DNA from: Eubacteriales bacterium
Lineage (GTDB): Bacteria; Bacillota; Clostridia; Oscillospirales; CAG-272
Direction of reading: 5' to 3'
Length of the DNA stretch: 64,000 nt
NCBI GenBank assembly: GCA_045643285.1
Contig: JAZUKN010000057.1
Span: 10,076-74,075, forward strand
Shown here: one piece after another, positions 19,502-51,880 of the stretch
Numbering within the stretch: the first letter of the stretch is position 1
Layout of the letters: the number at the start of each line of letters is the position of its first letter
Made by a program: the position numbers and the translations under genes
The notes under the pieces: generated by a model
The model's input: the letters and a program-made list of their open reading frames with translations, nothing else
Told to the model about the DNA's origin: nothing
Database searches by the model: none

Positions 19502-19524
19502 AATAATCTCCGTCCGATCCGGTT

Positions 19525-20409
19525 TTATTCGCCCTTTGATGTTTTATCCTTCTGTGAGCGGAAAAGCGGCAGATGAATCTTTTCGTCTTCCTCTCCGACG
19601 AGCTTCGACTGCAAAAATGCGCGAAGCGTACCTTTGTTGTAGCCGCGGACGAGTTGTCCTTCGACTGCCGTGGAGATCGTTCCGGTCTCCTCGGATACGA
19701 TAACGACTATAGCGTCGCTTATTTCGCTCATTCCGATGCCTGCTCTGTGGCGTGTGCCGAGATCCTTGATAATATCGGGGTTATTCGACAGCGGAAGCAC
19801 GCATCCGGCGGCATACACGCGCTTATCGCGGATGATCATTGCGCCGTCGTGCATCGGTGCTTTATTGAAGAAGATGTTCTTTACGAGGAATGATGCAGGA
19901 TTTGCGTCGAGAACTGTGCCTGTCGAGATCGTCTCGCCGAGCTTTGTCGTGCGCTCGAAGACGATAAGTGCGCCGGTCTTTGAATCGGAAAGGTCGCACA
20001 CCGCGGATGTGACTTCGTCGATGACTTTAGTCATATCGGCAGTGCCGCGCGACTCGCCGATACTCTTCAGTCCTTTAAGCGGAGTCGTGCCGAACTTTTC
20101 GAGCATCGAACGAATCTCGGGTTGGAAGAGGATGACGAGCGTGATGAAGCCGATCTGGAATATGTTTTGCAAAATGTACGACATGAGGTACATATCGAGC
20201 ACGTCGCTGATGATCCGCACCGCTATGAGCAGGAGGACGCCGACGGCGAGCTTCCCTGCCCGTTTGTCGCGTATGAAGACGAAAAGATAATAAAGCAGTA
20301 CGGCAACGCAGAGAATATCGACAATGTCGATCAGCGAAATTGATTTTATTGTGCTCCAGATATCGGAAAAACCTCTGAAGTTTTCGACTGTGACGGATTG
20401 CGGATTCAT
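19525..20409 (-). CDS. cdaA: Diadenylate cyclase CdaA
   Basis: 294 aa with three N-terminal TM helices and a DAC domain carrying HDGAMII and TRHRAGIGMSE. Confidence 0.93.
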   Translation of the reverse strand: MNPQSVTVENFRGFSDIWSTIKSISLIDIVDILCVAVLLYYLFVFIRDKRAGKLAVGVLLLIAVRIISDVLDMYLMSYILQNIFQIGFITLVILFQPEIRSMLEKFGTTPLKGLKSIGESRGTADMTKVIDEVTSAVCDLSDSKTGALIVFERTTKLGETISTGTVLDANPASFLVKNIFFNKAPMHDGAMIIRDKRVYAAGCVLPLSNNPDIIKDLGTRHRAGIGMSEISDAIVVIVSEETGTISTAVEGQLVRGYNKGTLRAFLQSKLVGEEDEKIHLPLFRSQKDKTSKGE

Positions 20410-20472
20410 ATATTCAGTCGCCCCTTTCGCGCTCGTAATTTACGTTTATGAAAAATAATTATACTTATTATA

Positions 20473-20501
20473 AGTATAGCACATAATCAGCGGTTTTTCA
20501 A
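20473..20501 (-). promoter_or_regulatory. Putative sigma-A promoter for cdaA-cdaR
   Basis: On the minus strand: TTGAAA (20501..20496), 17-nt spacer, TATACT (20478..20473). Confidence 0.45.
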
Positions 20502-20560
20502 ATGTTTTTTTGTGATTTTTTAATTATTTTTGAAGATTTCTATGAGGATTTTCGAAAAAT

Positions 20561-20841
20561 CTCACGGCTTCGCACGAAATGTCATTTTCCACCGTAGGGC
20601 GGGGGTTTACTCCCGCCGCCGAAAGACTTGAGTTTACTTTATATAGGCAAAAGGTAGAAAACGTCTGCGACGTTTTCAGATTTATTTTTTGTCCTGTTCG
20701 CTTGCGAACGGGCGGACATCGGACAATTCATCCAAACCACACGTTTGGTGTCGTCTTTGTCCTACGCGGACGGCGCACAAGAGCATCGAATCATGGAGTT
20801 CACGAAGAGAACTCGGCTTGTCCGCCGTCCGCGTAAGACAA
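20561..20841 (+). repeat. Single forward copy of the mosaic hairpin-module repeat (truncated at the GRE promoter)
   Basis: Hairpins lie at 20598..20617, 20657..20677, 20693..20712, 20732..20748 and 20797..20813. A long outer inverted repeat gtcctacgcggacggcg / cgccgtccgcgtaagac spans 20759..20839. Confidence 0.85.
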
Positions 20842-20844
20842 ACC

Positions 20845-20873
20845 TTGACATATCCCCCAAAAACGGATATAAT
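20845..20873 (+). promoter_or_regulatory. Consensus sigma-A promoter for the glycyl-radical enzyme operon
   Basis: TTGACA (20845..20850), 17-nt spacer, TATAAT (20868..20873). A second TATAAT lies at 20881..20886. Confidence 0.7.
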
Positions 20874-20933
20874 TATACTGTATAATTTTTTGACGTAATT
20901 TCACAAATTTCGTCCACCGCGGAGGTGATCATC

Positions 20934-21704
20934 TTGACGCTCGTTGCAGACATCGAACGCTGCTCTACTCACGACGGTCCCGGACTGCGTACCGTAGTCT
21001 TCCTCAAGGGCTGTCCTCTCCACTGCGCGTGGTGCCACAATCCCGAATGTATATCTTTCGATGCGGAAGAGCTTTTCTACGCCGACAAGTGCATCAGATG
21101 CGGTCACTGCAAGGACGGCTGTGTCACCGGTGCGCGCGTCACCTGCGGACGTGAGATGACGGCTGACAAAGTCCTCGAAGAAGTCCTCGCTGACCGCGAT
21201 TACTACGGCAAAAACGGCGGCGTCACCGTCAGCGGCGGAGAGCCGCTCGCGCACCCCGATTTCACAAAAGAATTACTTTACAAATGTAGAGAAAACGACA
21301 TTAAAACAGCTCTCGAAACGTCGCTGTACCGATATGACGAAGAGATTCTTTCGCTCGTAGATGTGCTGATGACGGACATAAAGATCTTCGATTCAGTTGA
21401 ACATAAAAAATACACCGGGATCGGAAACGAAGAAATACTCGCAAACATAAAACGCGCCGATACACTCGACGTGCCGATCATCGTTCGCACGCCCGTTGTC
21501 ACGGGAGTGAACGACAGCGCGGAGAACATAAAACAGACTGCCTTCTTTGTCCGTTCGCTCAAAAACGCTGTGAAATACGAGCTTCTGCCGTATCATCCGC
21601 TCGGACTGACAAAGGCACGCGCGCTCGGCAGGGAAATGACCGAATTTTCGTCCCCTACAAAAGAAAAAATGGAGGAACTCAGACAATATGCTTACATACG
21701 CTGA
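20934..21704 (+). CDS. Glycyl-radical enzyme activating protein (radical SAM, PflA family)
   Basis: It carries CSTHDGPGLRTVVFLKGCPLHCAWCHNPE (the CxxxCxxC cluster) plus one ferredoxin-like CIRCGHCKDGC motif. I prefer the TTG at 20934 (GGAGG 9 nt upstream) to the ORF-track GTG at 20925, which abuts the RBS. Confidence 0.9.
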   Translation: MTLVADIERCSTHDGPGLRTVVFLKGCPLHCAWCHNPECISFDAEELFYADKCIRCGHCKDGCVTGARVTCGREMTADKVLEEVLADRDYYGKNGGVTVSGGEPLAHPDFTKELLYKCRENDIKTALETSLYRYDEEILSLVDVLMTDIKIFDSVEHKKYTGIGNEEILANIKRADTLDVPIIVRTPVVTGVNDSAENIKQTAFFVRSLKNAVKYELLPYHPLGLTKARALGREMTEFSSPTKEKMEELRQYAYIR

Positions 21705-23904
21705 CCGACTCGCACAAATGCGAAAAACAAAAATCGAGCACACATTCATAAAAAAACAGCAGAACGGCTTTACCGACATCGACGACTTCGGCACCGTTCC
21801 GCTTCCGGAGAATTATTCCGTCATGCCGTGGTATAACAGCGACAAAGGCAGTTTCTACGGGCTTGACGGCATGAGCGAGAACTTCTGCCGCGTCCTCGGT
21901 GCGCATCCGGCATACATCGATCCTATGGAAATGCTCTGCGGACGGTGGAGAGATATGCTCGTCAACTACCGCGGTGACATCCACTACGCGCCCGACTGGA
22001 TGAGAAAGAACAAAGAGCTGTTCGATCTCGTCTACGGCAACACTTCCGTTCAGTGGAGCAAATGCTGGGACGAAAAACGCTTCCCGTACGACGATCTGAA
22101 GCCACTGCAGAAGCTTTACAACATCCAGTCCGGCATCGACGGCGACGCACATCTCGCACCCGATTACCGCATCGGGCTGTCGCTCGGCTTCGGCGGACTG
22201 CTTGAGAAGATCGAGAAATACAGAAAGATAAACCCCGAAAAAAAGGCGTTCTACGACGCGGAAGAAAAGTGCGTCCGTGCGATAGTTGCGTTCATCGACA
22301 GGCATATCGAAAAGATCAAAGAAATGATCCCCGACGAGGAGCGTCCCGAAATCAAAGCATCACTCGAAAAGATGCTTACAGTGTGCGAAAACGTCCGCCT
22401 CGGTGTGCCGAAAACGTTCCACGAGGCTTGCCAGTGGGTGGCGTTCTACGTCTGCGCGACGCGCGTTTACACAAGAGACGGCGCGGGCTTCCAGCTCGAC
22501 ACTATCCTCCTGCCGTACTACGAAAACGACATAAAATCGGGCGAGCTTGACGACGGGACTGCAGTGTTCCTCATCGCAAATCTCTTGTTGATCGACCCGC
22601 ATTACTACCAGATCTCGGGTGTGGACGAGAACGACCGCGATATCACGAATCACCTTTCTTATCTCATTCTTGACGCAGCAGACGCGATAAACATATCCTG
22701 TAACCTCACGGTGCGTGTCCACGAAAACTGCGACGCGGATTTTCTCCGCAAAGCCGTCGGTTGCCTCCTCAAAAACAAGAACGGATGGCCGCGCTTCTGC
22801 GGTGACAAGTCCCTCTGCGACGGATATATGCGCTGGGGTATCGACAAGGAAACTGCACGTCAGCGTATCGCAGTCGGGTGCAACTGGATGGCGGTTCCGG
22901 GGCTTGAATTTCCGATGAATGACACCGTAAAGATCAATATTGCAAAGGTTTTCGACGTTGCAATGGCTGAAATGCATTCCGAGTCTGATAAATCGGTGGA
23001 AAAGCTGTTCGAGATATATGAAAAGCACCTCAGAAAAGCCGTAGAAGTCACGGCGGCAGGCGTGAATCTGCACCTCGACCACATCCACGACGTAACGCCT
23101 GAGCTTATAATGGATCTGATGTTCGTCGATTCTATTGAAAAAGGACTTGACGCGTCGCAGTGCGCGAAGCTCTATACAGTCGGCGTTGACGGTGCGGGAC
23201 TTGCAGTCGTCGCCGATTCGTTCGGTGCGCTGAAAACGAGAGTCGAAGACGAAAAGCGTCTCACATGGGACGAAGTATACGCCGCGCTTGATTCTGATTT
23301 TGCCGACGAAAGAGTACGGCTTATGCTCGCGTCATCACCGAAATACTGCGGTGGCGGTAACGTGTCTGATAAATTCGCGCAGAAGCTCACTGATTCGTGG
23401 GTGAAAGCCGTAACAGGTGCAAAAATGCCCGACGGACGGCACCTCGTTCCGGGGTGGTTCTCGTGGGCGCGGTCGATCGAATACGGCGCAGTCGTCGGCG
23501 CAACGCCGAACGGAAGAAAAAAAGGCGAGCCGATCTCGCACGGTGCGAACCCGAATCCGCATTTCCGTGAAGACGGCGCGGCTACGGCACAGTCGAACGG
23601 TATCGCGGCAGTACAGTGCGGCTGGGGCAACACTGCACCGCTCCAAATTGAATTTGATCCGAAGCTCGCCGATGACGACGGTGCTGTCGAGATAATCTGC
23701 GACTTTATTAAAGCGCATTTCGGACGCGGCGGCACACTGATCAACATAAACATACTTGACAAAGAAAAGCTCATGGAAGCGCACCGCGATCCGTCGACGC
23801 ATCCCGATCTTGTCGTGCGCGTTACGGGCTTCACGGCATACTTTGCGTCGTTGACGCCGGGATTCAGACAACTTGTGGTGAACAGGTTTATTGAGGGGAT
23901 GTAA
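21688..23904 (+). CDS. Glycyl-radical enzyme of unknown substrate (PFL-like fold)
   Basis: 738 aa. The C-terminal glycyl-radical motif is VVRVTGFTAYF (Gly714, codon 23827..23829). A single candidate thiyl Cys sits in AVGCNWMAVPG (Cys398, codon 22879..22881). Its start overlaps the activase stop by 17 nt. Confidence 0.9.
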   Translation: MLTYADRLAQMRKTKIEHTFIKKQQNGFTDIDDFGTVPLPENYSVMPWYNSDKGSFYGLDGMSENFCRVLGAHPAYIDPMEMLCGRWRDMLVNYRGDIHYAPDWMRKNKELFDLVYGNTSVQWSKCWDEKRFPYDDLKPLQKLYNIQSGIDGDAHLAPDYRIGLSLGFGGLLEKIEKYRKINPEKKAFYDAEEKCVRAIVAFIDRHIEKIKEMIPDEERPEIKASLEKMLTVCENVRLGVPKTFHEACQWVAFYVCATRVYTRDGAGFQLDTILLPYYENDIKSGELDDGTAVFLIANLLLIDPHYYQISGVDENDRDITNHLSYLILDAADAINISCNLTVRVHENCDADFLRKAVGCLLKNKNGWPRFCGDKSLCDGYMRWGIDKETARQRIAVGCNWMAVPGLEFPMNDTVKINIAKVFDVAMAEMHSESDKSVEKLFEIYEKHLRKAVEVTAAGVNLHLDHIHDVTPELIMDLMFVDSIEKGLDASQCAKLYTVGVDGAGLAVVADSFGALKTRVEDEKRLTWDEVYAALDSDFADERVRLMLASSPKYCGGGNVSDKFAQKLTDSWVKAVTGAKMPDGRHLVPGWFSWARSIEYGAVVGATPNGRKKGEPISHGANPNPHFREDGAATAQSNGIAAVQCGWGNTAPLQIEFDPKLADDDGAVEIICDFIKAHFGRGGTLININILDKEKLMEAHRDPSTHPDLVVRVTGFTAYFASLTPGFRQLVVNRFIEGM

Positions 23905-23911
23905 GGTATTC

Positions 23912-23982
23912 ATACGCGAAGCGTATATCATCCGTGAAACGGATATCATCGCGCAGCGATATCATCCGCGAATGCGGATATC
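23912..23982. repeat. Tandem array of four mini-hairpins separated by exactly ATC
   Basis: Hairpins are atacgc-gaa-gcgtat (23912..23926), atccgt-gaa-acggat (23930..23944), atcgc-gca-gcgat (23948..23960) and atccgc-gaat-gcggat (23964..23979). The array starts 8 nt after the GRE stop codon. Confidence 0.85.
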
Positions 23983-23995
23983 ATTATTCTTTAAC

Positions 23996-24535
23996 TTGCA
24001 CAAGCCACGTGGCTTCGCACGAAATACAAATCCACCTCCGGTAGGGGACGGTGTCCTCGACGTCCCGCGGATTTAGGCAAACCTCACTGCTACGCACGAA
24101 AAATCATTCTATACCGTAGGGGAGGGGTTTCCCCTCCCGCGGATTTGCACAAACCTCACAAAGGAAAAGGAAGAAAACGTCGGGAACGTTTTCAAATAAT
24201 CTATTTGTCCTGTTCGTTTACGAACGAGCGGACAGGCGCACGATTTTTCCAAACCGCACGTTTGGCTTCGGTGTGTCCTGTTCGCTTGCGAACGGGCGGA
24301 CGGCGGACAAGCCGAGTTCACTCCGTGAACTCAGTGAACGTCGCCTCCTTGTCAATCTACCCGCTTAGGGGGAAGGGACTTCGTCCTATTCACGCCTCCC
24401 GACTTCGTAAACGAAGTCGTCGAGATGCTTCGCATCTCGGTCTGACTCCCCTTTGTTGCAAAGCGAATGCAAATCTTTTGTTCGCTTTATCAAATTATTC
24501 ATTATTCATTCTTCATTATTCATTATTCATTTCAG
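23996..24535 (+). repeat. Forward copy of the mosaic hairpin-module repeat with an internally duplicated module, ending in AT-rich heptamer repeats
   Basis: Hairpins lie at 24002..24015, 24045..24066, 24120..24138, 24173..24193, 24209..24228, 24249..24265, 24277..24296, 24314..24332, 24400..24419 and 24421..24439. Five attattc-type heptamers occupy 24494..24528. It matches 15513..15812 closely by eye. Confidence 0.9.
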
Positions 24536-24543
24536 GAGACATC

Positions 24544-25107
24544 ATGGTTCATCACGGCACGAAAACTATCGAAACATCGCGACTGATTCTGCGCAAATTC
24601 ACGCTTGAAGACGCGCCAGCCGCTTATAAAAACTGGACAAGCGACGAGCGTGTGACGGAGTTTCTCCGCTGGCCGACGCACCGCGACATAGAAACGACAG
24701 AACGGATCGTAAAAATGTGGGTCGACGACAGCGAGCGCGACGATTTTTACCAGTGGGCTATCGTCTTGAAAGAGCTCGGCGAGCCTATCGGCACTATCAG
24801 CGTGGTTGACCGCAACGAAGACCTCGATATACTTCACATAGGCTACTGCATCGGAAGCAAGTGGTGGCACAAAGGCATCACGAGCGAGGCGTTCTCGGCG
24901 ATCATTCCGTATCTTTTCGGCGAGGTCGGCGCGAATCGTATCGAATCACAGCACGATCCGAACAACCCGAACTCTGGTGCGGTCATGCGCAAGTGCGGAC
25001 TCACTTACGAAGGCACGCTCAGACAGGCAGACTACAGCAACAAAGGTGTAGTTGACGCCGCGATGTACAGTATTCTGAAAAGCGAGTGGCTCGCGTCGCG
25101 GAAATAA
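24544..25107 (+). CDS. GNAT-family N-acetyltransferase (RimJ/RimL-like)
   Basis: The ATG at 24544 is preceded by AGGAGA. The sequence TSRLILRKFTLEDA...WAIVLKE...IGYCIGSKWWHKGITSEA is typical of GNAT. The ORF-track extension back to 24145 runs through the repeat element. Confidence 0.88.
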   Translation: MVHHGTKTIETSRLILRKFTLEDAPAAYKNWTSDERVTEFLRWPTHRDIETTERIVKMWVDDSERDDFYQWAIVLKELGEPIGTISVVDRNEDLDILHIGYCIGSKWWHKGITSEAFSAIIPYLFGEVGANRIESQHDPNNPNSGAVMRKCGLTYEGTLRQADYSNKGVVDAAMYSILKSEWLASRK

Positions 25108-25113
25108 AACAAA

Positions 25114-25150
25114 AATCCCACGGCTTTTTCTTCCGTGGGATTTGTTTTTT
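25114..25150. terminator. Bidirectional intrinsic terminator between convergent GNAT and esterase genes
   Basis: aatcccacgg / 9-nt loop / ccgtgggatt, flanked by an A-run and a T-run. Confidence 0.8.
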
Positions 25151-25152
25151 GC

Positions 25153-25998
25153 TTATCTGCGGCTCTCAAGCACCTTTTCAGCCATTAGATTACCGAGCCT
25201 TATTATGCTGTCCGAGTCGTAGTGCGCGAGGTCGGGTGCGTCGAGCGGCTCGCGTGTGACCGAAAGACCCTCAGCCTGCGTGTCGATGTAATAATAGTGC
25301 ATCTCACGCGCGTTTTCTTCTTTGCGGCGGTTCATTTCCCCGTTCTGCGGCCAAGACTTTGAGATACCGCAGTCGATCACGGCGCAGTTGCGGATGTATT
25401 CGCTGAACTCTGCCTTAAAATCGCCGATCAGGTTGTTGAACATCCTGATATAGTCGTCGACTTCGGGATCCGATTCGCCCTGCATCCAGCAGAACGCCGC
25501 TATTTCGGGGGCGTAACCCTGCTTTTCGAGCTTATCTATGCTTTCCGACAGCAACGCCCGGAACTCATTGTAGTACCAGCCGCGCTTGTAGCGATGTTTT
25601 TCGAGGTCGTTGTAGATATTCTCTCGGTCAATGCAACGCTCGTTATAGTCAAAATCCTCGACGGATGACGGGGACGCCCAGTCGTAACTGAGGGACGCAC
25701 CTCCGACCGCGCTCTTGACGATGAACCACTCGCCGTCCGCCGGATTTTTCGTCAATACTTCCGCGATACCAAGTTCGGGACCGACGGTGTCTTTCGTTTT
25801 TTCGGTGCAGCCCACAGTCGTCGGAACGAAGCCGTCGCTCCACTTGTCGTGTGAGAAGTAATTGATCTTCACGCTGTCGTATCCTGCGAGATATTCTTTG
25901 ACTTTCTCATCTGAGAAGTGGTCGCCGAGGTATTTTTTCCAGCCGACACCGACAGCATTCGACTGTCCTGCAAGAATCACGATGTTTGCTTTTTTCAT
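25153..25998 (-). CDS. SGNH/DUF303-type carbohydrate esterase (sialate O-acetylesterase-like)
   Basis: 281 aa. N-terminal IVILAGQSNAVGVG resembles the GQSNM motif of the sialate O-acetylesterase family. Confidence 0.65.
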   Translation of the reverse strand: MKKANIVILAGQSNAVGVGWKKYLGDHFSDEKVKEYLAGYDSVKINYFSHDKWSDGFVPTTVGCTEKTKDTVGPELGIAEVLTKNPADGEWFIVKSAVGGASLSYDWASPSSVEDFDYNERCIDRENIYNDLEKHRYKRGWYYNEFRALLSESIDKLEKQGYAPEIAAFCWMQGESDPEVDDYIRMFNNLIGDFKAEFSEYIRNCAVIDCGISKSWPQNGEMNRRKEENAREMHYYYIDTQAEGLSVTREPLDAPDLAHYDSDSIIRLGNLMAEKVLESRR

Positions 25999-26037
25999 AA
26001 GACTTTTTTGCTCGTTTTCTGTGAATGATTTTATATC

Positions 26038-26151
26038 CCGTACACGTCCTTGACCTTAGCTTCAAGGTATCTGAGGTAGAAGTCGGGATCGAACGGCTCG
26101 CCGAGGACCTTGTCAAGTATCTCGCACGGCTTGTAAAGCGAGCCGAACTGC
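26038..26151 (-). pseudogene. Orphan duplicate of the last ~37 codons of the M32 carboxypeptidase gene
   Basis: 114 bp align to 27396..27509 with 3 mismatches, all in the first ~25 bp. In the carboxypeptidase frame it reads ...LRYLEAKVKDVYGI-stop, and the substitutions are synonymous. No upstream coding sequence is attached. Confidence 0.85.
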
Positions 26152-26166
26152 GTGGGGATCTGTTTT

Positions 26167-27366
26167 TTATTTCCCTATGCACTTGCGTTCAAGTGCACTG
26201 AGGAATGCGCTTGACGTGAAAATCTGATAGTTACCGACTGTTTCGCCGTTGTCTGCCGGAAGCAGTCTGGTGTTTTCTGTCCCGACGAACAGCTTTGACG
26301 GAGTTGGGACGATAATCAGGATTTTTGTCGTGTCACTTTCAAATGAAAAATCAAATCTTGACAGAATGGGGTACAATTCTGTTTTAAAAAGCCGAAACGT
26401 GTGCAGGCATATTCCGTTTCCGTTTTCGGAAAAAGCAAGCGGCGAACCTTTCCACACTCCTGCAATAATCTTACAGCGGAATTCTTTCTCCCCGACCGAT
26501 ACGCTGAAATTGTAGCCTCTCTGTTCGCGGAACACAGAAGAATAAGGCTTTTTGACTTCGCTCAAAGCTATTGATTCTTTTGAGCAGACGCGGCGCAGAC
26601 TGCGCATAAATCTTCTCTGTTTCAAAAGAGCGCGTGCAAAGACAATCACGATAACCGCAGCTATCACAGACAGCACGGCAATAATTATTTTCACTGCATA
26701 TTCCCGATTTCCTCGCGCTAAGAGCAGCAGAGTACTTGCCAATGGTATGAGACACGCAAATCCCGAAAAGAGAATGAGACAACCGATAAGTACCACTATG
26801 AGATTTTTGATGGTTCTGACAATAGGATTCTTCTTGTTCGCCTTTCCATCATAATGGTCACGTCTCCAACCTTTATGTACATAATAGAATACGCAAAATT
26901 CAATCATGAACAAAAGCACGATGTAAATTACCCAAGAGATAATTTTTGTTTGAATCGGTGACAGAGATGATTTGTCAAGGAATGATCCCGCTATGCAGCC
27001 TAATCCGAAAGAGAACGGCATCACTGCCGATAAAACTGCGAAGCAGGCAAATTCGATTAAAAAGTCAAAAGAGAGGATAATGTTTTTCGATTCGGCGGAG
27101 AAAGTCGATTTCTCTTTGATTTTGTCGAGGTAGTCGCATTTTTTCTCATTGTTATTAACCTCCACTGCGCTCATAACAAGAAAAGTAATCAACAAAAGAA
27201 TGATAAAACCCCACACGGCAATGAAATGATCGCTGGTTTCATACGCCGCTACGGACAGAATTATTTCGAACATAATTTTTACTGCCGTCCAAAATCCGAC
27301 GACAAAAAAGTATGCGATGATCGAAATAAGAAATCGAAAACCTATTCTTTTCGCTTTATCTTCCAT
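26167..27366 (-). CDS. Hypothetical 6-TM membrane protein with ~140-aa C-terminal soluble domain
   Basis: 399 aa with six hydrophobic segments and then a basic linker RRFMRSLRR. I do not recognise the C-terminal domain. The gene is visibly AT-richer than its neighbours and sits between the 114-bp direct repeats. Confidence 0.7.
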   Translation of the reverse strand: MEDKAKRIGFRFLISIIAYFFVVGFWTAVKIMFEIILSVAAYETSDHFIAVWGFIILLLITFLVMSAVEVNNNEKKCDYLDKIKEKSTFSAESKNIILSFDFLIEFACFAVLSAVMPFSFGLGCIAGSFLDKSSLSPIQTKIISWVIYIVLLFMIEFCVFYYVHKGWRRDHYDGKANKKNPIVRTIKNLIVVLIGCLILFSGFACLIPLASTLLLLARGNREYAVKIIIAVLSVIAAVIVIVFARALLKQRRFMRSLRRVCSKESIALSEVKKPYSSVFREQRGYNFSVSVGEKEFRCKIIAGVWKGSPLAFSENGNGICLHTFRLFKTELYPILSRFDFSFESDTTKILIIVPTPSKLFVGTENTRLLPADNGETVGNYQIFTSSAFLSALERKCIGK

Positions 27367-27388
27367 AAAAAATCCTTTAGGGTTCTAT

Positions 27389-28888
27389 TTACACGCCGTA
27401 TACGTCCTTGACTTTCGCTTCAAGGTATCTGAGGTAGAAGTCGGGATCGAACGGCTCGCCGAGGACCTTGTCAAGTATCTCGCACGGCTTGTAAAGCGAG
27501 CCGAACTGCCATATTTCTGCTTTGTTCCACGCATTCACCGGTGCGAAATCGCCTTTTCTTATACAGCCGTCTACATCGACGGTCTTTTTCATTTTATCGA
27601 GGAACTGCGCGCCGTATGCCGAGCCGAGCGCATAGGACGGGAAGTATCCGATCGAGCCGCCCGACCAGTGGCTGTCCTGGAGAACGCCGTGCTTGTCGTC
27701 CGGCACGTCCACACCGAGATATTCTTTGTAGAGCGCGTTCCATGCCGCCGGCAGATCGTGGACGCTGAGCTGTCCTGCCATGACGCGCTTTTCAAGCTCG
27801 TATCTTACCATGACGTGCAGACAGTATGTTACTTCGTCGGCTTCGGTGCGGATCAGCGACGGCTCTGCCTTGTTTACCGCACGGTAGAAGTCCTCTGCGG
27901 TGTGCGCCTTTAGTTCAGGGAACAGCTCGCACAGCTTCGGATAGATGAATTCGCAGTACGCGCGGCTCCGTCCGATAATGTTTTCGTAGAAGCGGCTCTG
28001 GCTTTCGTGGATGCCCATTGAAACTCCGCCGTCGATCGCCGTGAATGCGTACTCGTCACGGCAACCCGTGTCATAAAGCGCGTGACCGCCTTCGTGGATG
28101 ACCGAGTACATCGACGGAACAAAATAGTCCTCGTGATAGTGCGTCGTGATGCGTTCGTCGAGGTGCGAGCCGAGGTCAGTCGTGAACGGATGCTCCGTCT
28201 CTGCGATGCCGACGTGCATGAGATCAAGTCCCATTGTACGCATCAGATAATCGGACAGCTCTCTCTGCTTGTCTATCGGGAAATTACCCCAGAGGAATGA
28301 GTCGTCGACCTGCTTTGTCGCGGCAACTTTTTTGAGCAAGGGAACAAGGCACGCGCGGACTTTTCCGAAAAAGTCGTCGCACACGGCTTTGTTAAGTCCG
28401 TCTTCATATTCACCGAGCCAGTAGTCGTAGGGATCCTTGTCAGGCGCGAAATATCCGGCAAAGCGCTTGTTCGTCTCGAAGATCTTTTCGAGGATAGGCT
28501 CGAAAAGCGCGAAATCGCTCGCTTCTTTTGCTCTGTGCCATACGTCGTCCGCCTCGACGAGCAGTTCCTCGTATGCGATATACTCGTTCATCGGAACTTT
28601 CTGCATCTGACGGATTGATTTGAGAAGCAGAAATACCTCGCGGCGCTCTTCTTCGGTAAGCTCATCCTTGTTTACGTCGAGAAATTCGAGCAGAGCAACG
28701 GTTTCTTCACCCGTCGAGAGCTTGTATTCCTCTTCGGAAAGAACTGCGAGCGTGCGTGCGCGGTTTGCGGCTGTGCCTTTCGGCGCGGTCGTCTGTCCGT
28801 CGTAGAAGATCATCGTGGATGCGTGGGCGTATGCTTTGAGTTTTGTTTGCAGGGTTTTGAGGTTTTCTCTTGCTTCGGTGAGTGTCAT
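27389..28888 (-). CDS. M32 carboxypeptidase (Taq-type thermostable carboxypeptidase 1 family)
   Basis: 499 aa with the zinc motif HEGGHALYD and the M32-typical HESQSRFYEN. Confidence 0.93.
   Translation of the reverse strand: MTLTEARENLKTLQTKLKAYAHASTMIFYDGQTTAPKGTAANRARTLAVLSEEEYKLSTGEETVALLEFLDVNKDELTEEERREVFLLLKSIRQMQKVPMNEYIAYEELLVEADDVWHRAKEASDFALFEPILEKIFETNKRFAGYFAPDKDPYDYWLGEYEDGLNKAVCDDFFGKVRACLVPLLKKVAATKQVDDSFLWGNFPIDKQRELSDYLMRTMGLDLMHVGIAETEHPFTTDLGSHLDERITTHYHEDYFVPSMYSVIHEGGHALYDTGCRDEYAFTAIDGGVSMGIHESQSRFYENIIGRSRAYCEFIYPKLCELFPELKAHTAEDFYRAVNKAEPSLIRTEADEVTYCLHVMVRYELEKRVMAGQLSVHDLPAAWNALYKEYLGVDVPDDKHGVLQDSHWSGGSIGYFPSYALGSAYGAQFLDKMKKTVDVDGCIRKGDFAPVNAWNKAEIWQFGSLYKPCEILDKVLGEPFDPDFYLRYLEAKVKDVYGV
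27396..27509. repeat. Direct-repeat partner of 26038..26151 (functional 3' end of the carboxypeptidase gene)
   Basis: Aligned by eye, about 90 consecutive identical bases plus a 5' part with 3 mismatches. Copy-to-copy offset is 1358 bp. Confidence 0.85.
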
Positions 28889-28966
28889 ATTGTTTCCGCC
28901 TTTCTATGATTTGTGTTAAAATTATGCCTCCCCTGTGCAAAGGGAGCCTGCTTGTAGGTATTGCAC

Positions 28967-30796
28967 TTACGATAATTCAATCATGTTTGAGTAAAGCTGA
29001 TAATACTTTCCGTGCTGAGCGAGCAGGTCGTCGTGGTCGCCACGCTCGATGACCTTGCCGTGCTCGAGCACAAGTATCGCGTTCGAGTGACGGACTGTCG
29101 AAAGCCTGTGCGCGATAACGAACACCGTGCGCCCTTCCATAAGCCCGTCAAGCCCCTGCTCGATCAGTTTTTCCGTTCTCGTGTCGACAGAAGACGTAGC
29201 TTCGTCGAGAATAAGCACCGGCGCTTCCGAAACTGCCGCACGGGCTATGGCGATAAGCTGACGCTGACCTGCCGAAAGGTTTGCGCCGTCATTCACGAGA
29301 AGCGTATCGTATCCGTCGGGCAGATGCGAGATGAAATAGTGCGCGTTCGCTATCTTCGCGGCTTTTACGCAGTCTTCGTCCGTCGCGTCGAGCTTTCCGT
29401 AGCGGATGTTGTCCATTACCGTACCCGTGAAGAGGTGCGTATCCTGTAAAACTATACCGAGCGAGCGGCGCAGATCGTCTTTTTTTATTTTACGCACGTC
29501 TATGCCGTCGTAAGTGATCGTGCCGCCCTGTATATCGTAAAATCTGTTTATAAGGTTCGTTATCGTCGTTTTTCCGGCGCCTGTCGAGCCTACGAACGCG
29601 ATCTTCTGCCCGGGTTTTGCGTACAGCGAAAGGCCTGTAAGTACGGGCTTTCCTTCGATATATGAGAAATCGACGTCGTAGAACCGCACGTCGCCCTTGA
29701 GCGGCACTCTCTCGCCGTCAGGTTTTACCCAGAAGTAGTCGCGTCCGTCGTTTTCGAGCGTCACGCTTCCGCCGTCTTCTTCGTCGTCAAGATCGAGCAC
29801 GCCGAATATTCTTTCCGCGCCTGCAAGTGCAAGCATGATCGAATTGAACTGCTCCGCTATCTGGCTCACGCGGTTTGCAAATGTTCTTATGTATGAGAGG
29901 AACGTGATCAGCACCGAGCCTGCGTCGTCCGCCGTGAGCCACAGCACACCGACGGAGCAGGTCGTCGCATAGAAGAAGTGCGAAAGGTTGTTCAAAATCG
30001 GTCCGAGGATAGACGTTACGGTCGTCGCCTCGGTGGAGGCTTTTCTGAGGTCCTCATTTATCGGTTCGAAGCCGTCCATTACTTCGTCTTCGTGGGTGAA
30101 GACCTTGACGTCGCGCGCACCTGCTATCATTTCTTCAATGTAACCGTTGACTGCCGCCGCGCCTTTCTGCTGTGCACGGTAGCTCCGTCCGCTTATCGTT
30201 GTAGTGATCTTCACGACGGCTATCACGATGCCTCCGAGGACTATCATCAAGGCGAACAGCTTCATAGACAGCACGAGCATCATTGAGACCGTACCGATAA
30301 GCGACGTTACCGAAATGAGCATCTGCGTGATGCTGTGTTCGAGCAGTTCGTTCGTTGCTTCGATATCGTTCGTGAAGTAGCTCATCAGCGCGCCGTGCGG
30401 ATTGCGGTCAAAGTAACTGACGGGGAGCTTCTGCATCTTCGAGAACAGCTCTGTTCTCAGCTCACGCATGATTATCGTGCTCGATTCCATCATAAGGCGG
30501 TTGAGTATGTAGTTCGTGACAGCCGACAGAACATACAGCGCAAAAAGCCCGATGAGCAGAGCAAAATATTTTGCGTACTTTTCGTCGGCGATCCCCGATG
30601 ATTCAAGCACGCCGACGAGCGGCTTCATCATGAACGACGCCGCTATGGTCGCGCCCGAATACACAAGGATAGACGCAACTGCCGCAGTGATAAGCACACG
30701 GCAATGGCTGAAATATTTCACGAGCCGCATGAGAGTGTGCATCGGAGTGGCGGCTTTCGAGTATTTCTGCAGATCAACTCTCGGCATTTCCGTCAT
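28967..30796 (-). CDS. ABC exporter permease/ATPase subunit (heterodimer partner with consensus catalytic site)
   Basis: 609 aa with an N-terminal 6-TM domain. Walker A is GSTGAGKTT, the signature is variant LSAGQRQ, and Walker B is VLILDEATSSVD with the catalytic Glu. Confidence 0.92.
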   Translation of the reverse strand: MTEMPRVDLQKYSKAATPMHTLMRLVKYFSHCRVLITAAVASILVYSGATIAASFMMKPLVGVLESSGIADEKYAKYFALLIGLFALYVLSAVTNYILNRLMMESSTIIMRELRTELFSKMQKLPVSYFDRNPHGALMSYFTNDIEATNELLEHSITQMLISVTSLIGTVSMMLVLSMKLFALMIVLGGIVIAVVKITTTISGRSYRAQQKGAAAVNGYIEEMIAGARDVKVFTHEDEVMDGFEPINEDLRKASTEATTVTSILGPILNNLSHFFYATTCSVGVLWLTADDAGSVLITFLSYIRTFANRVSQIAEQFNSIMLALAGAERIFGVLDLDDEEDGGSVTLENDGRDYFWVKPDGERVPLKGDVRFYDVDFSYIEGKPVLTGLSLYAKPGQKIAFVGSTGAGKTTITNLINRFYDIQGGTITYDGIDVRKIKKDDLRRSLGIVLQDTHLFTGTVMDNIRYGKLDATDEDCVKAAKIANAHYFISHLPDGYDTLLVNDGANLSAGQRQLIAIARAAVSEAPVLILDEATSSVDTRTEKLIEQGLDGLMEGRTVFVIAHRLSTVRHSNAILVLEHGKVIERGDHDDLLAQHGKYYQLYSNMIELS

Positions 30797-32633
30797 CCTC
30801 CTCTCTCATTTGGCTGTCGTAAACGTCGCGGTAGATGTGGCTCCGTTTCATAAGCTCGTCGTGCGTTCCGAAATCGGAGAGCTTGCCTTCATCGAGAACG
30901 ACTATTCTGTCGCAGGTGATGATCGACGCTATGCGCTGTGCGATGATGATTTTCGTCGTGTCAGGCAGGGACGAACGGAGAGCGCGGCGAATGTGCTCGT
31001 CAGTCGTCATGTCAACTGCACTTGTGGAGTCGTCGAGGATCAGTATCTTCGGCTTCTTGATGACGGCACGCGCTATTCTCAATCTCTGCCTCTGACCGCC
31101 CGACAGATTTGCGCCGCCCTGTTCAATGGGATGCTCATATTGTTCGGGATAATTTTCTATGTATTCGTCAGCCGCGGCGATACGGCACGCTTCTTTCATT
31201 TCGTCGAGTGTTGCGTCGGCTTTTCCCCAGCGCAGATTCGACGCAACTGTACCCGAGAACAGCGAGCCGTTCTGCAGTACCATGGAAACTCCGCCGCGGA
31301 GATTTTCGAGCGTGTATTCGCGCACGTCACGACCGCCGACTTTCACTGTGCCTGATAAAGTATCGTAAAAACGCGGAATGAGGTTCACGAGGGTGGACTT
31401 GCCCTCTCCGGTGCCGCCGATGACGCCGATAGTCTCGCCGCTCTTTATATGCAAAGTGACGTGATTCACGGCGAGCTTGTCTATGTCTCCCGAATACGAG
31501 AAGCACACATCGTCGAAGTCCACCGAACCGTCGGGAACGGGTTCCGTGCAGTCGCCGTCCGCTATATCGGGTACTTCGTCAAGCACTTCTCCTATTCTTA
31601 CAAGAGAAGCCTGCGCGCGTGAAAATCCCATAACGAGCCATGTGAGCATCGTGAGCGCGTTTACAGCCTGCGTCGTGTATGACATGATGCTGACAAGCTC
31701 GCCTGTGAGCAGTCCTGTTTTTTCATAGATGATCTCGCCGCCTCCGATATAGAGTATGATAACGGAGCAGATCCACATGATCATCATCTGTATCGGTCCT
31801 GTCAGCGTGAAGAGCTTTCCTGAATAGAACTGCGCTGAACGAAGCTCCTCCGCCGTATCGGCAAAGCGTTTTGATTCGTATTTTCCGCGGACGTACGCCT
31901 TTACCACACGGTTTGATGTGAGGTTTTCCTGCACGGCGCGGTTCATGTCGTCTGTTTTGACGAGCATTTTACGGAAACGCGGCTGACCGATCTTTATCAT
32001 CACCGTCAGAATTGCGGCAAGAACAGGTATCGCAATAAGAAATACTACCGCAAGGCGCGGTGCTATCAGCATCGCCATGACAGCCGAGAGGATGAGCATG
32101 ACGGGTTGACGGAACAGCACGCGGATGAACTGGTGCATCGTGTTGCGGACGGTATTTACGTCTGTCGTCGCACGGGTGATAAGGCTCGGCGTCGAAAAAC
32201 GGTCGGTGTTCGAGAACGATAACGACTCTATCTTCGTGAGAATATCGGTGCGGAGATTCTTTGCGAATCCCTGACTTGCGACAGCCGAAAGGCGCGCGGA
32301 AAGCAGTCCGCAGACGAGCGAGAGCACGGCGACAGTCACCATGATCGCGCCGACGAAAATGACGAAACGGCTTCGGTCGGCAACGAGATCTTCTCTGAAA
32401 TATTCGTGAAGCAGAAAATTATCTTTTCTGTACAGACCGCCGTCGACGATGACCGACATGAGAAGCGGTATGAACATTTCGAGTACGACCTCGAGTCCGG
32501 CGAAAAATGCCGCCAGAACCGTATACCCGCCGTATCCGCGAAGACTGTTTATAAGGTGAGAATATACTCCGCGAGAGGATTTTTTCGTTTCAGAAGAAAC
32601 TTGGTTTTTTATGATTATCACTTCCGTGTGCAA
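30774..32633 (-). CDS. ABC exporter permease/ATPase subunit (heterodimer partner with degenerate Walker B)
   Basis: 619 aa. Walker A is GGTGEGKST, the signature is LSGGQRQR, and Walker B ILILDDSTSAVD has Asp in place of the catalytic Glu. This is the pattern of heterodimeric exporters such as TM287/288. The TTG start is uncertain. Confidence 0.88.
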   Translation of the reverse strand: MHTEVIIIKNQVSSETKKSSRGVYSHLINSLRGYGGYTVLAAFFAGLEVVLEMFIPLLMSVIVDGGLYRKDNFLLHEYFREDLVADRSRFVIFVGAIMVTVAVLSLVCGLLSARLSAVASQGFAKNLRTDILTKIESLSFSNTDRFSTPSLITRATTDVNTVRNTMHQFIRVLFRQPVMLILSAVMAMLIAPRLAVVFLIAIPVLAAILTVMIKIGQPRFRKMLVKTDDMNRAVQENLTSNRVVKAYVRGKYESKRFADTAEELRSAQFYSGKLFTLTGPIQMMIMWICSVIILYIGGGEIIYEKTGLLTGELVSIMSYTTQAVNALTMLTWLVMGFSRAQASLVRIGEVLDEVPDIADGDCTEPVPDGSVDFDDVCFSYSGDIDKLAVNHVTLHIKSGETIGVIGGTGEGKSTLVNLIPRFYDTLSGTVKVGGRDVREYTLENLRGGVSMVLQNGSLFSGTVASNLRWGKADATLDEMKEACRIAAADEYIENYPEQYEHPIEQGGANLSGGQRQRLRIARAVIKKPKILILDDSTSAVDMTTDEHIRRALRSSLPDTTKIIIAQRIASIITCDRIVVLDEGKLSDFGTHDELMKRSHIYRDVYDSQMREEDDGNAES

Positions 32634-32747: not shown

Positions 32748-33347
32748 TTATTTCTTCACTGTCCGTATGATCTCTTCCGCGATCTCGACAATTCTCAGTT
32801 TAACTTTCACTTTTCCGTCGGATTTCGTTATCATTCTGTACTCCGCAGGCGTGAGCGACACTGCCGAATATTCGTCGGTCCTCGCAAATCTCATACACAC
32901 CGCCGGAAACAGCACGCACCACCAGTTATGCCCCTCTCCCTCTCCGAGAACGACTCTGAGAGAATCGTATTCACCGGACGGAAGCACAGTATCCCCGTAA
33001 TCGCGCCGCGGATATGTCTCGCGCCCGAGCAGCACCGTCACCGCGCAGTCTCCGCCGTTCTCCGAGACGCATTCTTCAGCCGCATCTTTGATTTCTTCCG
33101 TTACCATACCGACAGCCGCGTATGCCTCATCCTCGGTCGTACAGTTCTCCACTGCTCCCGTCACTACTTCAAGCACAGCGTCGCGCACCTTTAGTTTAAG
33201 CGACTGATCTTCGTCCGAGTCAGACTCCGCTATGACGTGAAGCCGCAGTACGTCGTCGTATATATTGCCCTCGCCGCAAATCGGAAAAACAGACACCAGA
33301 ACAGCCGCCACAAGCACAGACGACACAAAAGAAAGAAGATATTTCAT
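32748..33347 (-). CDS. spoIIR: Stage II sporulation protein R
   Basis: 199 aa with a signal/anchor sequence followed by LRLHVIAESDSDEDQSLKLKVRDAVL, the hallmark SpoIIR block. Confidence 0.88.
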   Translation of the reverse strand: MKYLLSFVSSVLVAAVLVSVFPICGEGNIYDDVLRLHVIAESDSDEDQSLKLKVRDAVLEVVTGAVENCTTEDEAYAAVGMVTEEIKDAAEECVSENGGDCAVTVLLGRETYPRRDYGDTVLPSGEYDSLRVVLGEGEGHNWWCVLFPAVCMRFARTDEYSAVSLTPAEYRMITKSDGKVKVKLRIVEIAEEIIRTVKK

Positions 33348-33398: not shown

Positions 33399-34181
33399 TT
33401 ACTCATCCGCGCCGATTATTTCCGGCGGTCTTGCCGTTCTTGCGACAGACACCGGAAAAACAGTCGCCGCACCGCACGAATACAGCAGTTCCGCCGCCGT
33501 TTTCACAGTCGCGCCCGACGTTATTATATCGTCAACGAGAATGTATTTTCCGCCGTCCTCGATCCTGTTCCGCAGTGGAATAAGTGTGCTTTCGGCGTTA
33601 ATTTTTCTCTTCTCCGCCGAGAGAGTCTTCTGCTCGACGGATCTTGAGCCGCGCGCCAGTGTTCTTGCCGTCCTACAACCGAGTATTTTCGCCATTTCGG
33701 AGGCAAGCGTCTCGCTTTGGTCTATGCCATATTTATAGAAATTCCTGTCGGAGCGCGGAGGATAAGTGATGATCCATTCCGTTATATCCTCGCCGCCGTC
33801 CGAAAAGATTCTGCCGAGTCCGCGGCATATCTCCGTCGCAAACATACGCGCGAATGCACCGCGTTCTTTCAGCGCGAATATCAGCTTTTCCGTCGCGCGG
33901 TCACTTTCTCCGAACGATTTTTCGCTTTTGTAAAACGTGAGAGAAAAGAAAGACTTTCCACCAACCGTGCGGCGTGTCACGTCCGTAAAATCAGTTCCGC
34001 AGGTGCAGTTCTGAGCGGTCTTTCCGCACACGGGACAATGCTCGAAGCATTCGCGGACGAATTTTGCGCGGCAAGAGTCGCACAGTTCTTCGCCTTTCGT
34101 GCCGTTTTCACCGCAAAGCTCGCACCTCGGAGGTATCAGAATATCGAGTAATTTTCCGAAAAGTCCCATATTGTCTCTCAC
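33399..34181 (-). CDS. comFC: ComF-family phosphoribosyltransferase-domain protein
   Basis: N-terminal Cys pairs (PPRCELCG, CPVCG) and the C-terminal PRTase motif ILVDDIITSGATV. Confidence 0.85.
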   Translation of the reverse strand: MRDNMGLFGKLLDILIPPRCELCGENGTKGEELCDSCRAKFVRECFEHCPVCGKTAQNCTCGTDFTDVTRRTVGGKSFFSLTFYKSEKSFGESDRATEKLIFALKERGAFARMFATEICRGLGRIFSDGGEDITEWIITYPPRSDRNFYKYGIDQSETLASEMAKILGCRTARTLARGSRSVEQKTLSAEKRKINAESTLIPLRNRIEDGGKYILVDDIITSGATVKTAAELLYSCGAATVFPVSVARTARPPEIIGADE

Positions 34182-51726: not shown

Positions 51727-51880
51727 ATTTGCATTCACTTTGTAATAAAGGGGAGTCCAGAGGGGGAATGAGCTTGCTCCTTCCCCCTTTGGCGGGTAGA
51801 TTGACAAGAAGGTGACGGTCACCTTCTTGTCCGCCCCGCGCGTAGCGGAAACCATGAAATCGAAAACACGAAGTGTTTTC
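51727..51880 (-). repeat. Single inverted copy of the mosaic hairpin-module repeat (short subtype)
   Basis: Contains gacaagaaggtgac-g-gtcaccttcttgtc (51803..51831) and gaaaacac-gaa-gtgttttc (51862..51880). It nearly matches 15905..16015 by eye. Confidence 0.88.

Follow-up and report, generated by a model that had tools for sequence, protein, structure and literature searches.

The 64-kb stretch of DNA analyzed here (the window, from an uncultured lineage of gut Clostridia) carries a single, compositionally foreign gene (the cargo) directly behind an intact M32 carboxypeptidase gene, and a direct repeat of the end of the carboxypeptidase gene flanks it. The duplication is real and is inherited in three strains. 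The best explanation, which we favor tentatively and regard as having somewhat less than an even chance, is that a circularised fragment composed of an M32 gene end and the cargo was integrated by a single crossover (i.e., Campbell-type integration). The footprint is of an ordinary kind and involves no new mechanism. It provides a clean natural example of a single foreign gene entering a bacterial core chromosome without mobile-element machinery, with a preserved scar (a displaced gene end and one illegitimate joint) that lets the event be reconstructed. Decay usually erases scars of this kind before they can be noticed.

The duplicated gene end and its cargo

The features of the locus are listed in Table 1. 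The predicted M32 peptidase was left intact, as the preliminary description of this DNA had maintained: the Pfam match (E value, 5.8e-160) covers model positions 2 to 488 of 489, the translation contains the zinc motif HEXXH in the form HEGGH, and the dN/dS against one of the two sister strains (L003) is 0.02. No terminator-like site was found in the spacer between the peptidase and cargo genes, and Rfam and promoter/terminator scans of the two spacers gave no match.

Table 1. Features of the M32-SASA interval (window positions)
Feature	Position	Strand	Remarks
SASA-family carbohydrate esterase	25153..25998	-	Conserved downstream edge of slot; Pfam PF03629, E value 6.6e-19
R2, orphan M32 3' end	26030..26151	-	Reads QFGSLYKPCEILDKVLGEPFDPDFYLRYLEAKVKDVYGI-stop; stop at 26031-26033
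Non-homologous junction 26151/26152	26152..26166 (15 nt past cargo stop)	-	...GATCCCCAC / GCAGTTCGG... (slash, junction)
Cargo gene, 399-aa multi-pass membrane protein	26167..27366	-	Sole ORF within the 1244 nt between the repeats
Spacer, M32 stop to cargo start (22 nt)	27367..27388	-	AAAGGA Shine-Dalgarno-like motif
R1, functional 3' end of M32	27388..27509	-	Last 40 codons plus stop, continuous with M32
Peptidase M32 (carboxypeptidase Taq-type), intact, 499 aa	27389..28888	-	Pfam PF02074; ends ...KDVYGV-stop

Pairwise alignment bore out the previously noted 114-bp direct duplication (26038-26151 versus 27396-27509), with exactly three mismatches that all lie towards the stop-proximal end, and extended the repeat to 122 nt (95% identity; spacing, 1358). 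It corresponds to the last 40 codons plus the stop of the M32 gene. Read in the M32 frame, the three core mismatches are synonymous, as had been stated (GCG/GCT, Ala; AAA/AAG, Lys; GTA/GTG, Val), and the tails read DVYGV-stop in the functional copy (R1) and DVYGI-stop in the orphan copy (R2), with tips that differ by V/I only. The window contains exactly two copies of one 42-nt stretch of the repeat, while two matches were obtained in 0 of 100 shuffles, in agreement with the earlier view that the orphan is a genuine M32 3' end. Both copies stop one codon past the end of homology, at the length found in all relatives. The GV-stop tail is canonical, being present in 16 of 16 relatives examined (the 12 that make up the 90% M32 cluster, plus 4 that are more distant); the GI-stop of R2 is the odd one.

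The synonymous differences had also been taken as proof of a separate allele, and this argument fails. The changes are private to R2 of the window strain, except for one shared with the second sister strain (L002), and the orphans of L003 and L002 otherwise match the functional copy there and carry other changes, nonsynonymous ones among them (AAG GTC to CGC GTA in L003, including K to R; GTA to ATG, V to M, in L002). Thus, where two repeat copies within a genome show synonymous differences only, comparison with sister strains is needed to avoid a misleading conclusion. The four private changes in R1 of L003, on the other hand, are all synonymous. R2 has no in-frame start codon, which makes it an untranslatable second gene end. 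Given the missing start codon and the nonsynonymous changes in the sister strains, R2 is a decaying relic, left as a scar. Today, R1 and R2 differ at two to seven positions, and zero differences are inferred at the common ancestor of the strains over approximately 107 nt. This ancestral identity fits a purely local duplication or a later gene conversion equally well.

The homology to M32 begins abruptly at the 26151/26152 junction and is otherwise seamless. The adjoining 15 nt are the same in the window and L003, whereas L002 is one A short in the A-run beside the cargo stop. We read this junction as an illegitimate joint (i.e., a recircularisation or end-joining joint).

Regarding the single AT-richer gene described between the repeats, windowed GC (0.38 to 0.46 at the cargo; 0.52 to 0.58 in its surroundings) and codon-position composition both set it apart. 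Its GC3 is 0.458, versus 0.62 to 0.68 in six neighbors (PFL, GNAT, SASA, M32, ABC1, and ABC2), and on the basis of this difference the cargo is compositionally foreign and probably horizontally acquired. The three strains all have it as an uninterrupted ORF (dN/dS, 0.29 to 0.42). That the cargo has been kept at a dN/dS of 0.3 to 0.4, although the 114-nt repeats should allow its RecA-mediated loss, suggests that it confers some benefit or, failing that, is tolerated.

The cargo belongs to a real, uncharacterised membrane-protein family (455 representatives at an E value of ≤1e-3), which deserves attention as a family of ~400-aa proteins that fall into hundreds of clusters at 50% identity and are all without annotation. 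The window protein had nothing above the curated cutoff in Pfam and no match in NCBIfam or PADLOC, and a third protein search with the family alignment as the query added no further names or taxa. Its C-terminal domain (about 135 aa) is beta-rich and conserved; the xCK motif is also conserved, with the preceding acidic position occupied by R in the window protein. An AF2 model was obtained (pLDDT, 88), and fold searches against PDB with the whole model and the C-terminal domain gave no significant match. A PD-(D/E)XK nuclease fold was considered for this domain and rejected (top PDB matches, Hjc, I-Ssp6803I, and Bax1; E values of ≥0.14 and TM scores of ≤0.33), and a role as a nuclease or homing endonuclease was dropped because no fold match was significant. 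An assignment as a phage or plasmid gene was discarded after tblastn gave no match in the phage or plasmid collections. The immediate cargo cluster has three members only, all with R2. A metagenome scan with the family yielded one locus; flanking repeats were absent there and at two other loci of cargo homologs, so family-wide self-insertion by the cargo is not supported (n = 3). The 402-aa neighbor of one distant homolog was considered as a paralog and is not one.

Inheritance in three strains and the variable slot

Exact look-ups of the cargo and M32 proteins of the window gave no match, and the useful contigs were obtained through members of the clusters to which the window proteins belong. 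The junction (...AAAAACAGATCCCCAC / GCAGTTCGG...) and the same architecture are present in two independent metagenome assemblies from other samples (L003 and L002), which differ from the window by SNPs and represent diverged strains. The recurrence of one junction in independent assemblies of SNP-diverged strains establishes that the duplication is real and inherited and is no assembly artefact. One might suspect that sequences of two strains had been collapsed or joined into a chimera, given that the source DNA is a metagenome-type assembly, that L002 (a SPAdes contig) begins inside R1, and that one related contig (L089) may itself be chimeric; nevertheless, such an artefact is extremely improbable, since the junction is common to three assemblies made from different samples with different assemblers and since the L003 contig (megahit k141, with k = 141 exceeding the repeat length) spans both repeat copies, which differ from each other at seven positions. 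A 620-nt stretch comprising the 3' half of the cargo and the junction is identical in the three strains, which are otherwise 2 to 6% diverged, and the SNP patterns at the locus are mosaic, which points to frequent homologous exchange.

In relatives, the gene frame is ABC-ABC-M32-[slot]-SASA-GNAT-PFL, and the slot holds a DUF4332-like gene or is empty. The flanks of L090 are the same as those of the window (CdaA/YbbR, ABC, ABC, and M32 on one side; SASA, GNAT, PFL, and activase on the other), and its slot is occupied by a DUF4332-like gene; L087 likewise reads M32-DUF4332-like-SASA, and in L085 and L089 SASA follows M32 directly. None of these four contigs has a repeat of the M32 end. The comparison with related genomes that the preliminary description had called for is therefore available, with an occupied or empty slot and no duplication (L090, L087, and L085). 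By these gene orders, the M32-SASA interval is a slot whose content varies among strains in this group of gut Clostridia, and it can be flagged as such in the clade. Beyond the closest lineages, a scan of species-representative genomes (80 loci) revealed no conserved neighborhood; in "Ca. Apopatosoma intestinale," the nearest named relative (87% amino acid identity), the order is M32-DGOK.

Over the R1/R2 region, L087 and L086 differ at 6 to 9 of 107 sites and L024 differs at about 20%. As R1 and R2 are far closer to each other than to these nearest other lineages, the incoming M32 end was probably conspecific, i.e., it came from this lineage itself or from a very close relative. No empty site within the species (M32 with a GI-stop followed by SASA) was found, the 12 cluster members and 4 distant relatives all ending in GV, and no donor haplotype (M32-cargo without R2) was present in the 12-member M32 cluster or the loci fetched. 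The sole near-conspecific M32-SASA contig (L089) turns L085-like 300 nt before the stop, has 3x coverage, and may be an assembly chimera. The syntenic flanks contain no integrase or transposase gene, as had been reported for the window, and a ComFC-like competence gene lies nearby (33399-34181).

Origin of the arrangement

According to the single-crossover model, the cargo would have entered the M32-SASA slot on a small DNA molecule that also bore the last 110 to 120 nt or so of an M32 gene. A linear piece of DNA (the M32 3' end, 22 nt, the cargo gene, and 15 nt) would have been circularised by an illegitimate end-join, today's 26151/26152 junction, and one RecA-type crossover inside the ~107-nt homologous stretch would then have integrated the circle. 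M32 would thereby have been reconstituted complete with R1 (GV-stop) and with the cargo directly behind it, while the resident end attached to SASA (R2, GI-stop) would have been pushed 1358 nt downstream, where it would decay without a start codon. The resident haplotype under this displacement would be an M32 gene ending in GGG ATA TAA, followed by AATCATTCACAG...SASA. The circular form, the one crossover, and the parental origin of each tail are inferred here. The arrangement itself is as expected for Campbell-type integration: R1 is continuous with M32, R2 lies downstream at the spacing given above, and the two copies are nearly identical, as RecA-dependent exchange over some 100 bp demands (the ancestral count of zero differences over 107 nt compares with at least 6 to 9 in other lineages). 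No donor haplotype was found among the sequences searched. The model needs the cargo already beside M32 in a conspecific donor, which places its original acquisition one step earlier.

There is an experimental precedent. At Escherichia coli lacZ, single crossovers of the re-circularised molecule accounted for 56 of 60 insertions of DNA bearing the gene end, and the 14 insertions sequenced had 109- to 950-bp duplications of the gene end (PMC3240628). Here too, the homologous gene-end segment stands on both sides of the insert in direct orientation, and its length (about 107 to 122 bp) falls within the reported range; both cases have one illegitimate joint and a reconstituted target gene, and neither needs a site-specific recombinase. 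The present case differs in being a natural event in which the circle and donor are postulated and in having a single foreign gene of chromosomal type, with no plasmid, as cargo. The single crossover proposed in the preliminary description thus gains a precedent and a conspecific repeat, and lacks a donor or a same-species empty site among the loci obtained.

Alternatively, one-ended homologous recombination may have been combined with one illegitimate join between two conspecific haplotypes, as in HFIR or Rhs/CDI/T6SS loci, an option that we consider unlikely but worth weighing. A linear M32-cargo molecule would have been anchored by homology in M32, its far end would have joined illegitimately within a second M32 copy 114 nt before the stop, and the resident M32 end would have been shifted downstream. 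The single abrupt non-homologous junction amid seamless homology agrees with this course of events, as do the neighboring ComFC-like gene and the mosaic SNP patterns. To yield a duplication, however, the join would have to occur inside the anchor-paired region, which requires a second chromosome copy. C-terminal displacement in Rhs/CDI/T6SS effector loci was reportedly described by Jackson in 2009. It is treated by Kirchberger 2017 (PMC5361080), and HFIR-like events have been proposed to place old 3' ends behind incoming modules in T6SS/Rhs loci (PMC5361080). The present locus resembles these in that a new 3' end comes in together with the gene behind it, the old one persists downstream as an orphan without its 5' part, and the array was later exchanged between strains by homologous recombination. 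Those loci combine a toxin core, a variable tip, an immunity gene, and orphan tips; here, in contrast, the target is a housekeeping metallopeptidase and no polymorphic toxin, the peptides encoded by the two ends are almost identical, with no functional diversification, and an immunity function of the cargo is unsupported, given its lack of database matches. HFIR proper is defined as insertion of foreign DNA coupled with deletion of recipient DNA beside the anchor, and its experimental products carry that deletion and no duplication (PMC3240628). What is shared with HFIR is the gain of foreign DNA through homology that anchors one side only, together with a single illegitimate joint, but here recipient DNA was duplicated instead. 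Deletion of a DUF4332-like gene at the slot may have happened.

A purely local origin is rather unlikely. The cargo would have been inserted behind the M32 stop, an illegitimate sister-strand exchange would have duplicated the R-cargo unit, and a deletion would have removed most of the second copy (or, alternatively, a templated repair insertion occurred); the I-stop of R2 would then be an accident of the deletion joint and no real gene end. The tails fit this reading, since R1 has the canonical M32 end throughout (GGA/GGC GTG TAA A, as in L087, L090, and L086; GGC GTG TAA A in R1), while the R2 tail differs from it at four of nine positions directly after 107 identical bases. So do the inferred ancestral identity of the copies and the 26151/26152 joint, which has the exact form of a tandem-duplication junction. 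Three separate events are required, however; an orphan M32 end right before SASA, the gene behind M32 in relatives, would be a coincidence; and the in-frame stop one codon past the homology would be due to chance (roughly 5 to 10%, our own uncomputed estimate). We consider it quite improbable that the locus is a decayed site-specific integrative element (CIME-like) that had the M32 3' end in its attachment site, restored the gene on integration, and later lost its integrase and all but one cargo gene. Elements that integrate at a gene 3' end and restore the target include e14 and phage 21 in icd and ICESt3 in fda. In CIMEs, direct repeats (attL/attR) that include the target gene 3' end remain after integration and transfer genes have been lost (PMC5704250), and formally the layout conforms to this (target gene restored by an element-borne copy, attL-like repeat, cargo, and attR-like repeat with the displaced 3' end), as does the absence of recombination genes. 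Against it, no element with or without an integrase occupies the site in 80 species representatives or 6 closer loci (no integrase-bearing relative downstream of M32 in L005 to L090), with no recurrent use of the site; the repeat did not turn up in viral contigs, nor the cargo in phages or plasmids; the insert spans just 1.24 kb and holds a single gene, which is separated from the repeats by 22 nt and 15 nt and leaves no element remnants; and cargo homologs elsewhere have no flanking repeats. Two further modes were rejected: a staggered cut of the transposase type, which would leave a long target-site duplication, because it is the sequence after R1 and not R2 that is the canonical M32 continuation, and, considered in passing, integron-cassette insertion, as there is no attC-like inverted repeat at the cargo ends and no IntI nearby.

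A further reading, which we regard as very doubtful, is that the 1358-bp unit (M32 end plus cargo) acts as a minimal recombinase-free mobile cassette. The circle would pop out by RecA recombination between the 114-nt repeats, and one crossover at the M32 end could then bring it into any chromosome of the species again, so that the duplicated housekeeping-gene end would serve as an address label and the 620-nt identity across the three strains would be a trace of recent spread.

The duplicated gene end in three strains

Between the peptidase M32 gene and a SASA-family esterase gene, the window carries one membrane-protein gene (the cargo) and an orphan copy (R2) of the M32 3' end, R1 being the end of the working gene. 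A repeat finder matched R1 and R2 over 122 nt at 95% identity. The 114-nt core contains exactly three mismatches (GCG/GCT, AAA/AAG, and GTA/GTG), which are synonymous in the M32 frame; the direct repeat reported in the preliminary description was thus borne out in every detail, by the repeat finder and by alignment. The window contains two occurrences of a 42-mer from the repeat, a number that none of 100 shuffles reached. The homology has an abrupt onset at GCAGTTCGG and is patchy beyond TACGG, where R1 continues as C GTG TAA A (V-stop) and R2 as G ATA TAA A (I-stop). The sole non-homologous joint lies at 26151/26152.

Features of the window and of M32 loci from relatives (L085, L086, L087, and L090)
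Feature	Location	Strand	Remark
ABC transporter genes (ABC1, ABC2)	32633..28967	-	First in transcription order
Peptidase M32	28888..27389	-	After ABC genes
R1, working M32 3' end	27388-27509
Cargo, 399-aa ORF	27366..26167	-	After M32
R2, orphan M32 3' end, 122 nt	26151..26030	-	After cargo
SASA-family esterase gene	25998..25153	-	After R2
Gut-1 RNA match (RF01706)	23920-23986	-	Just downstream of PFL-like gene
ComFC-like ORF	33399-34181	-	Adjoins SpoIIR
SpoIIR	32748-33347
Inverted block, regions compared	window 18239-32633; L090:2910-15822
~430-nt repeat, copies in L085	3796-4196, 7004-7440, also 5-304
~430-nt repeat, partial copies in window	15657-16011, 20757-20842, 24345-24376, 45012-45121, 51732-51845, 60388-60508		Intergenic
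~430-nt repeat, copy at inverted block	20557-20842		CdaA-side end
Tandem hairpin units 3' of M32	L087:4648-4710; L086:9504-9584; L090:10504-10584; L085:5859-5950

The 90% cluster of the cargo protein has three members, whose contigs differ in sample and assembler. One sister-strain contig (L003; megahit, k=141) covers ABC1, M32, cargo, orphan, and SASA; the other (L002; SPAdes) begins within R1 and extends across cargo, orphan, SASA, GNAT, and PFL up to CdaA/YbbR. Both are ~97.3 to 97.7% identical to the window, and the junction ...AAAAACAGATCCCCAC|GCAGTTCGG... is common to all three. Because R1 and R2 differ at 7 of 122 positions in L003, they are not a collapsed repeat there, and it is highly improbable that an assembly artefact explains the duplication. 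The structure is a real, inherited recombination scar, left when a single foreign gene was acquired in a variable slot.

The three differences in R2 of the window are private to it, except for the G of GTG, which also occurs in L002; at the other private sites, R2 agrees with R1 in both L003 and L002. The earlier argument that three synonymous changes indicate allelism therefore fails. The L003 orphan has AAG GTC changed to CGC GTA (K to R) and the L002 orphan GTA changed to ATG (V to M); all four private changes in R1 of L003 are synonymous. This strain-by-strain distribution suggests that R1 and R2 were identical from GCAGTTCGG to TACGG (~107 nt) in the common ancestor of the strains. The orphan, which has no in-frame start codon and has TAG just upstream in its frame, has since been drifting without coding constraint.

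The earlier proposal that R2 is a genuine gene end stands, because both copies stop one codon past the homology, giving the length that every relative has. M32 ends in GV throughout its 90% cluster (12 members) and in four relatives of 84 to 89% identity, and the M32 tails of L087, L090, and L086 read GGA/GGT GTG TAA AA; the tail of R1 is the canonical one. In the repeat region, L087 and L086 differ at 6 to 9 of 107 sites, and a further relative (L024) differs by ~20%. Since R1 and R2 are mutually much closer than either is to any other lineage, the source of the second M32 end was either this species or this genome itself.

The interval in related lineages

In L090 (M32, 89% aa identity), CdaA/YbbR, ABC, ABC, and M32 are followed by tandem hairpin repeats and then by a 174-aa DUF4332-like gene, SASA, GNAT, PFL, and PFL activase, the genes on either side of the slot being those of the window. 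L087 contains M32, a DUF4332-like gene (87% identical to that of L090), and SASA; L086 shares the sequence 3' of M32 with L087; and L085 has a 93-nt spacer between M32 and SASA. Given that L090, L087, and L085 keep the pair, the M32-SASA linkage is ancestral in this group; no synteny at all was found with more distant species. In none of these four loci is the M32 end duplicated, and the window's species is the one among the compared lineages with a low-GC cargo and an orphan in the slot.

The comparison of orthologous intervals proposed in the preliminary description thus yielded relatives lacking the cargo, none with the membrane-protein gene at this position, but no same-species empty site. 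The only near match (L089; ERZ1767638 NODE_26444, 1-3580; 3x coverage), from the same assembly as L002, is window-like (0 to 4 mismatches per 100 nt) over ABC1 and M32 nt 1-1200. From that point to its end, which takes in the final 300 nt of M32, the 93-nt spacer, and SASA, it is L085-like (99.7%). Two lineages may truly have recombined here, with a breakpoint inside M32; otherwise the contig is a chimera assembled at low coverage.

Straight after the M32 stop, the relatives carry tandem 20- to 45-nt units with a GTGATGAT/AAGTGAAG motif and a short GC hairpin (loop TTCG, TTAC, or TGAC); these units are lost from the slot of the window's species. A dispersed, hairpin-rich, non-coding repeat of ~430 nt (copies 77 to 90% identical; no Rfam match) brackets the M32-SASA pair in L085. 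Possible identities are a MITE/REP-like element or an as yet undescribed RNA, and the repeat may underlie rearrangements in this clade. Relative to CdaA/YbbR, a ~12-kb block that runs from PFL activase to ABC2 has opposite orientations in the window's species (CdaA, activase, PFL, GNAT, SASA, cargo, M32, ABC, ABC) and in L090/L086 (in L090, CdaA, ABC, ABC, M32 ... PFL, activase), and a copy of this repeat lies at one end of the block. The Gut-1 RNA match covers the whole model (E, 9.8e-6); its 41.4 bits fall short of the gathering score of 50. The ComFC-like ORF encodes a double zinc ribbon and a phosphoribosyltransferase domain, a hint of possible DNA-uptake machinery in the organism.

Origin and later history of the insertion

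We tentatively rank first a single-crossover insertion, in which a molecule carrying an M32 end and the cargo would have re-circularised and then recombined at the M32 end, because the present structure has exactly the form of such an event. In Escherichia coli, molecules with a gene end mostly entered in this way, after partial degradation and re-circularisation (56 of 60 clones; gene-end duplications of 109 to 950 bp in the 14 sequenced) (PMC3240628). True homology-facilitated illegitimate recombination accounted for the other 4 of the 60 clones, with deletions as the product (PMC3240628); an event like it, or like C-terminal displacement, between two haplotypes (PMC5361080) is rather unlikely here. 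A local tandem duplication followed by deletion, somewhat less likely again, would explain the canonical tail on the working copy but turns two features of the orphan, its place before SASA and its in-frame stop, into coincidences. A decayed integrative element (CIME; defined in PMC5704250) is improbable; neither a related element nor recurrent use of the site was found in the species representatives, closer loci, and viral, phage, and plasmid sequences searched. Events of this kind are already known, and the scar adds one more example; the preliminary account, apart from its allelism argument, was accurate in description and right in its general reading.

Between the window and L003, cargo nt 1-671 differ at 38 sites (5.7%), whereas no strain differs from the others in the remaining 529 nt of the gene, at the junction, or in the first part of R2. 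Since this ~620-nt stretch (26167-26695, cargo nt 672-1200, plus 26062-26166) is identical while the 5' part of the cargo and the flanking genes (2 to 3%) differ, a recent homologous exchange or sweep is indicated. The cargo should be open to loss by RecA recombination between the 114-nt repeats; the databases, in which sampling is thin, contain no M32 gene ending GI, the expected pop-out allele.

The cargo gene and its family

The cargo is a foreign yet real gene. Its GC3 is 0.458, compared with 0.651 (PFL), 0.670 (GNAT), 0.681 (SASA), 0.670 (M32), 0.667 (ABC1), and 0.621 (ABC2) for its neighbours. All three strains keep the ORF intact; its dN/dS is 0.29 to 0.42 (M32, 0.02). When 1.84 billion cluster representatives were searched exhaustively with HMMER, the cargo had 455 relatives at E<=1e-3 (counted at 50% clustering) and 342 at E<=1e-10, mostly 390 to 410 aa long. 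The cargo matched no Pfam family at its cut-off and nothing in NCBIfam or PADLOC.

The AlphaFold model (pLDDT 88) comprises long helices (residues 1-263) and a beta-rich domain (264-399), the latter being the conserved part of the family (motifs xCK, FES..KILI.P.P, and AD.GE). Cys-Lys, FES, P.P, and D.G are invariant there in this unannotated family of ~400-aa membrane proteins. Fold searches with the whole model and with the domain alone (pLDDT 89) returned nothing significant; the top matches, to PD-(D/E)XK nucleases, were weak (E>=0.14; TM<=0.33), and we built nothing on them. Of the homologs elsewhere, two (L001 and L004) adjoin and follow an ECF sigma factor and a 402-aa protein, and behind a third (L088) lies an AAA_15/AAA_21 ATPase gene; no flanking repeats were found around these three. 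Because neither the 22-nt spacer ahead of the cargo nor those around the orphan contain a terminator-like or promoter-like site, the cargo is probably co-transcribed with M32 and SASA.
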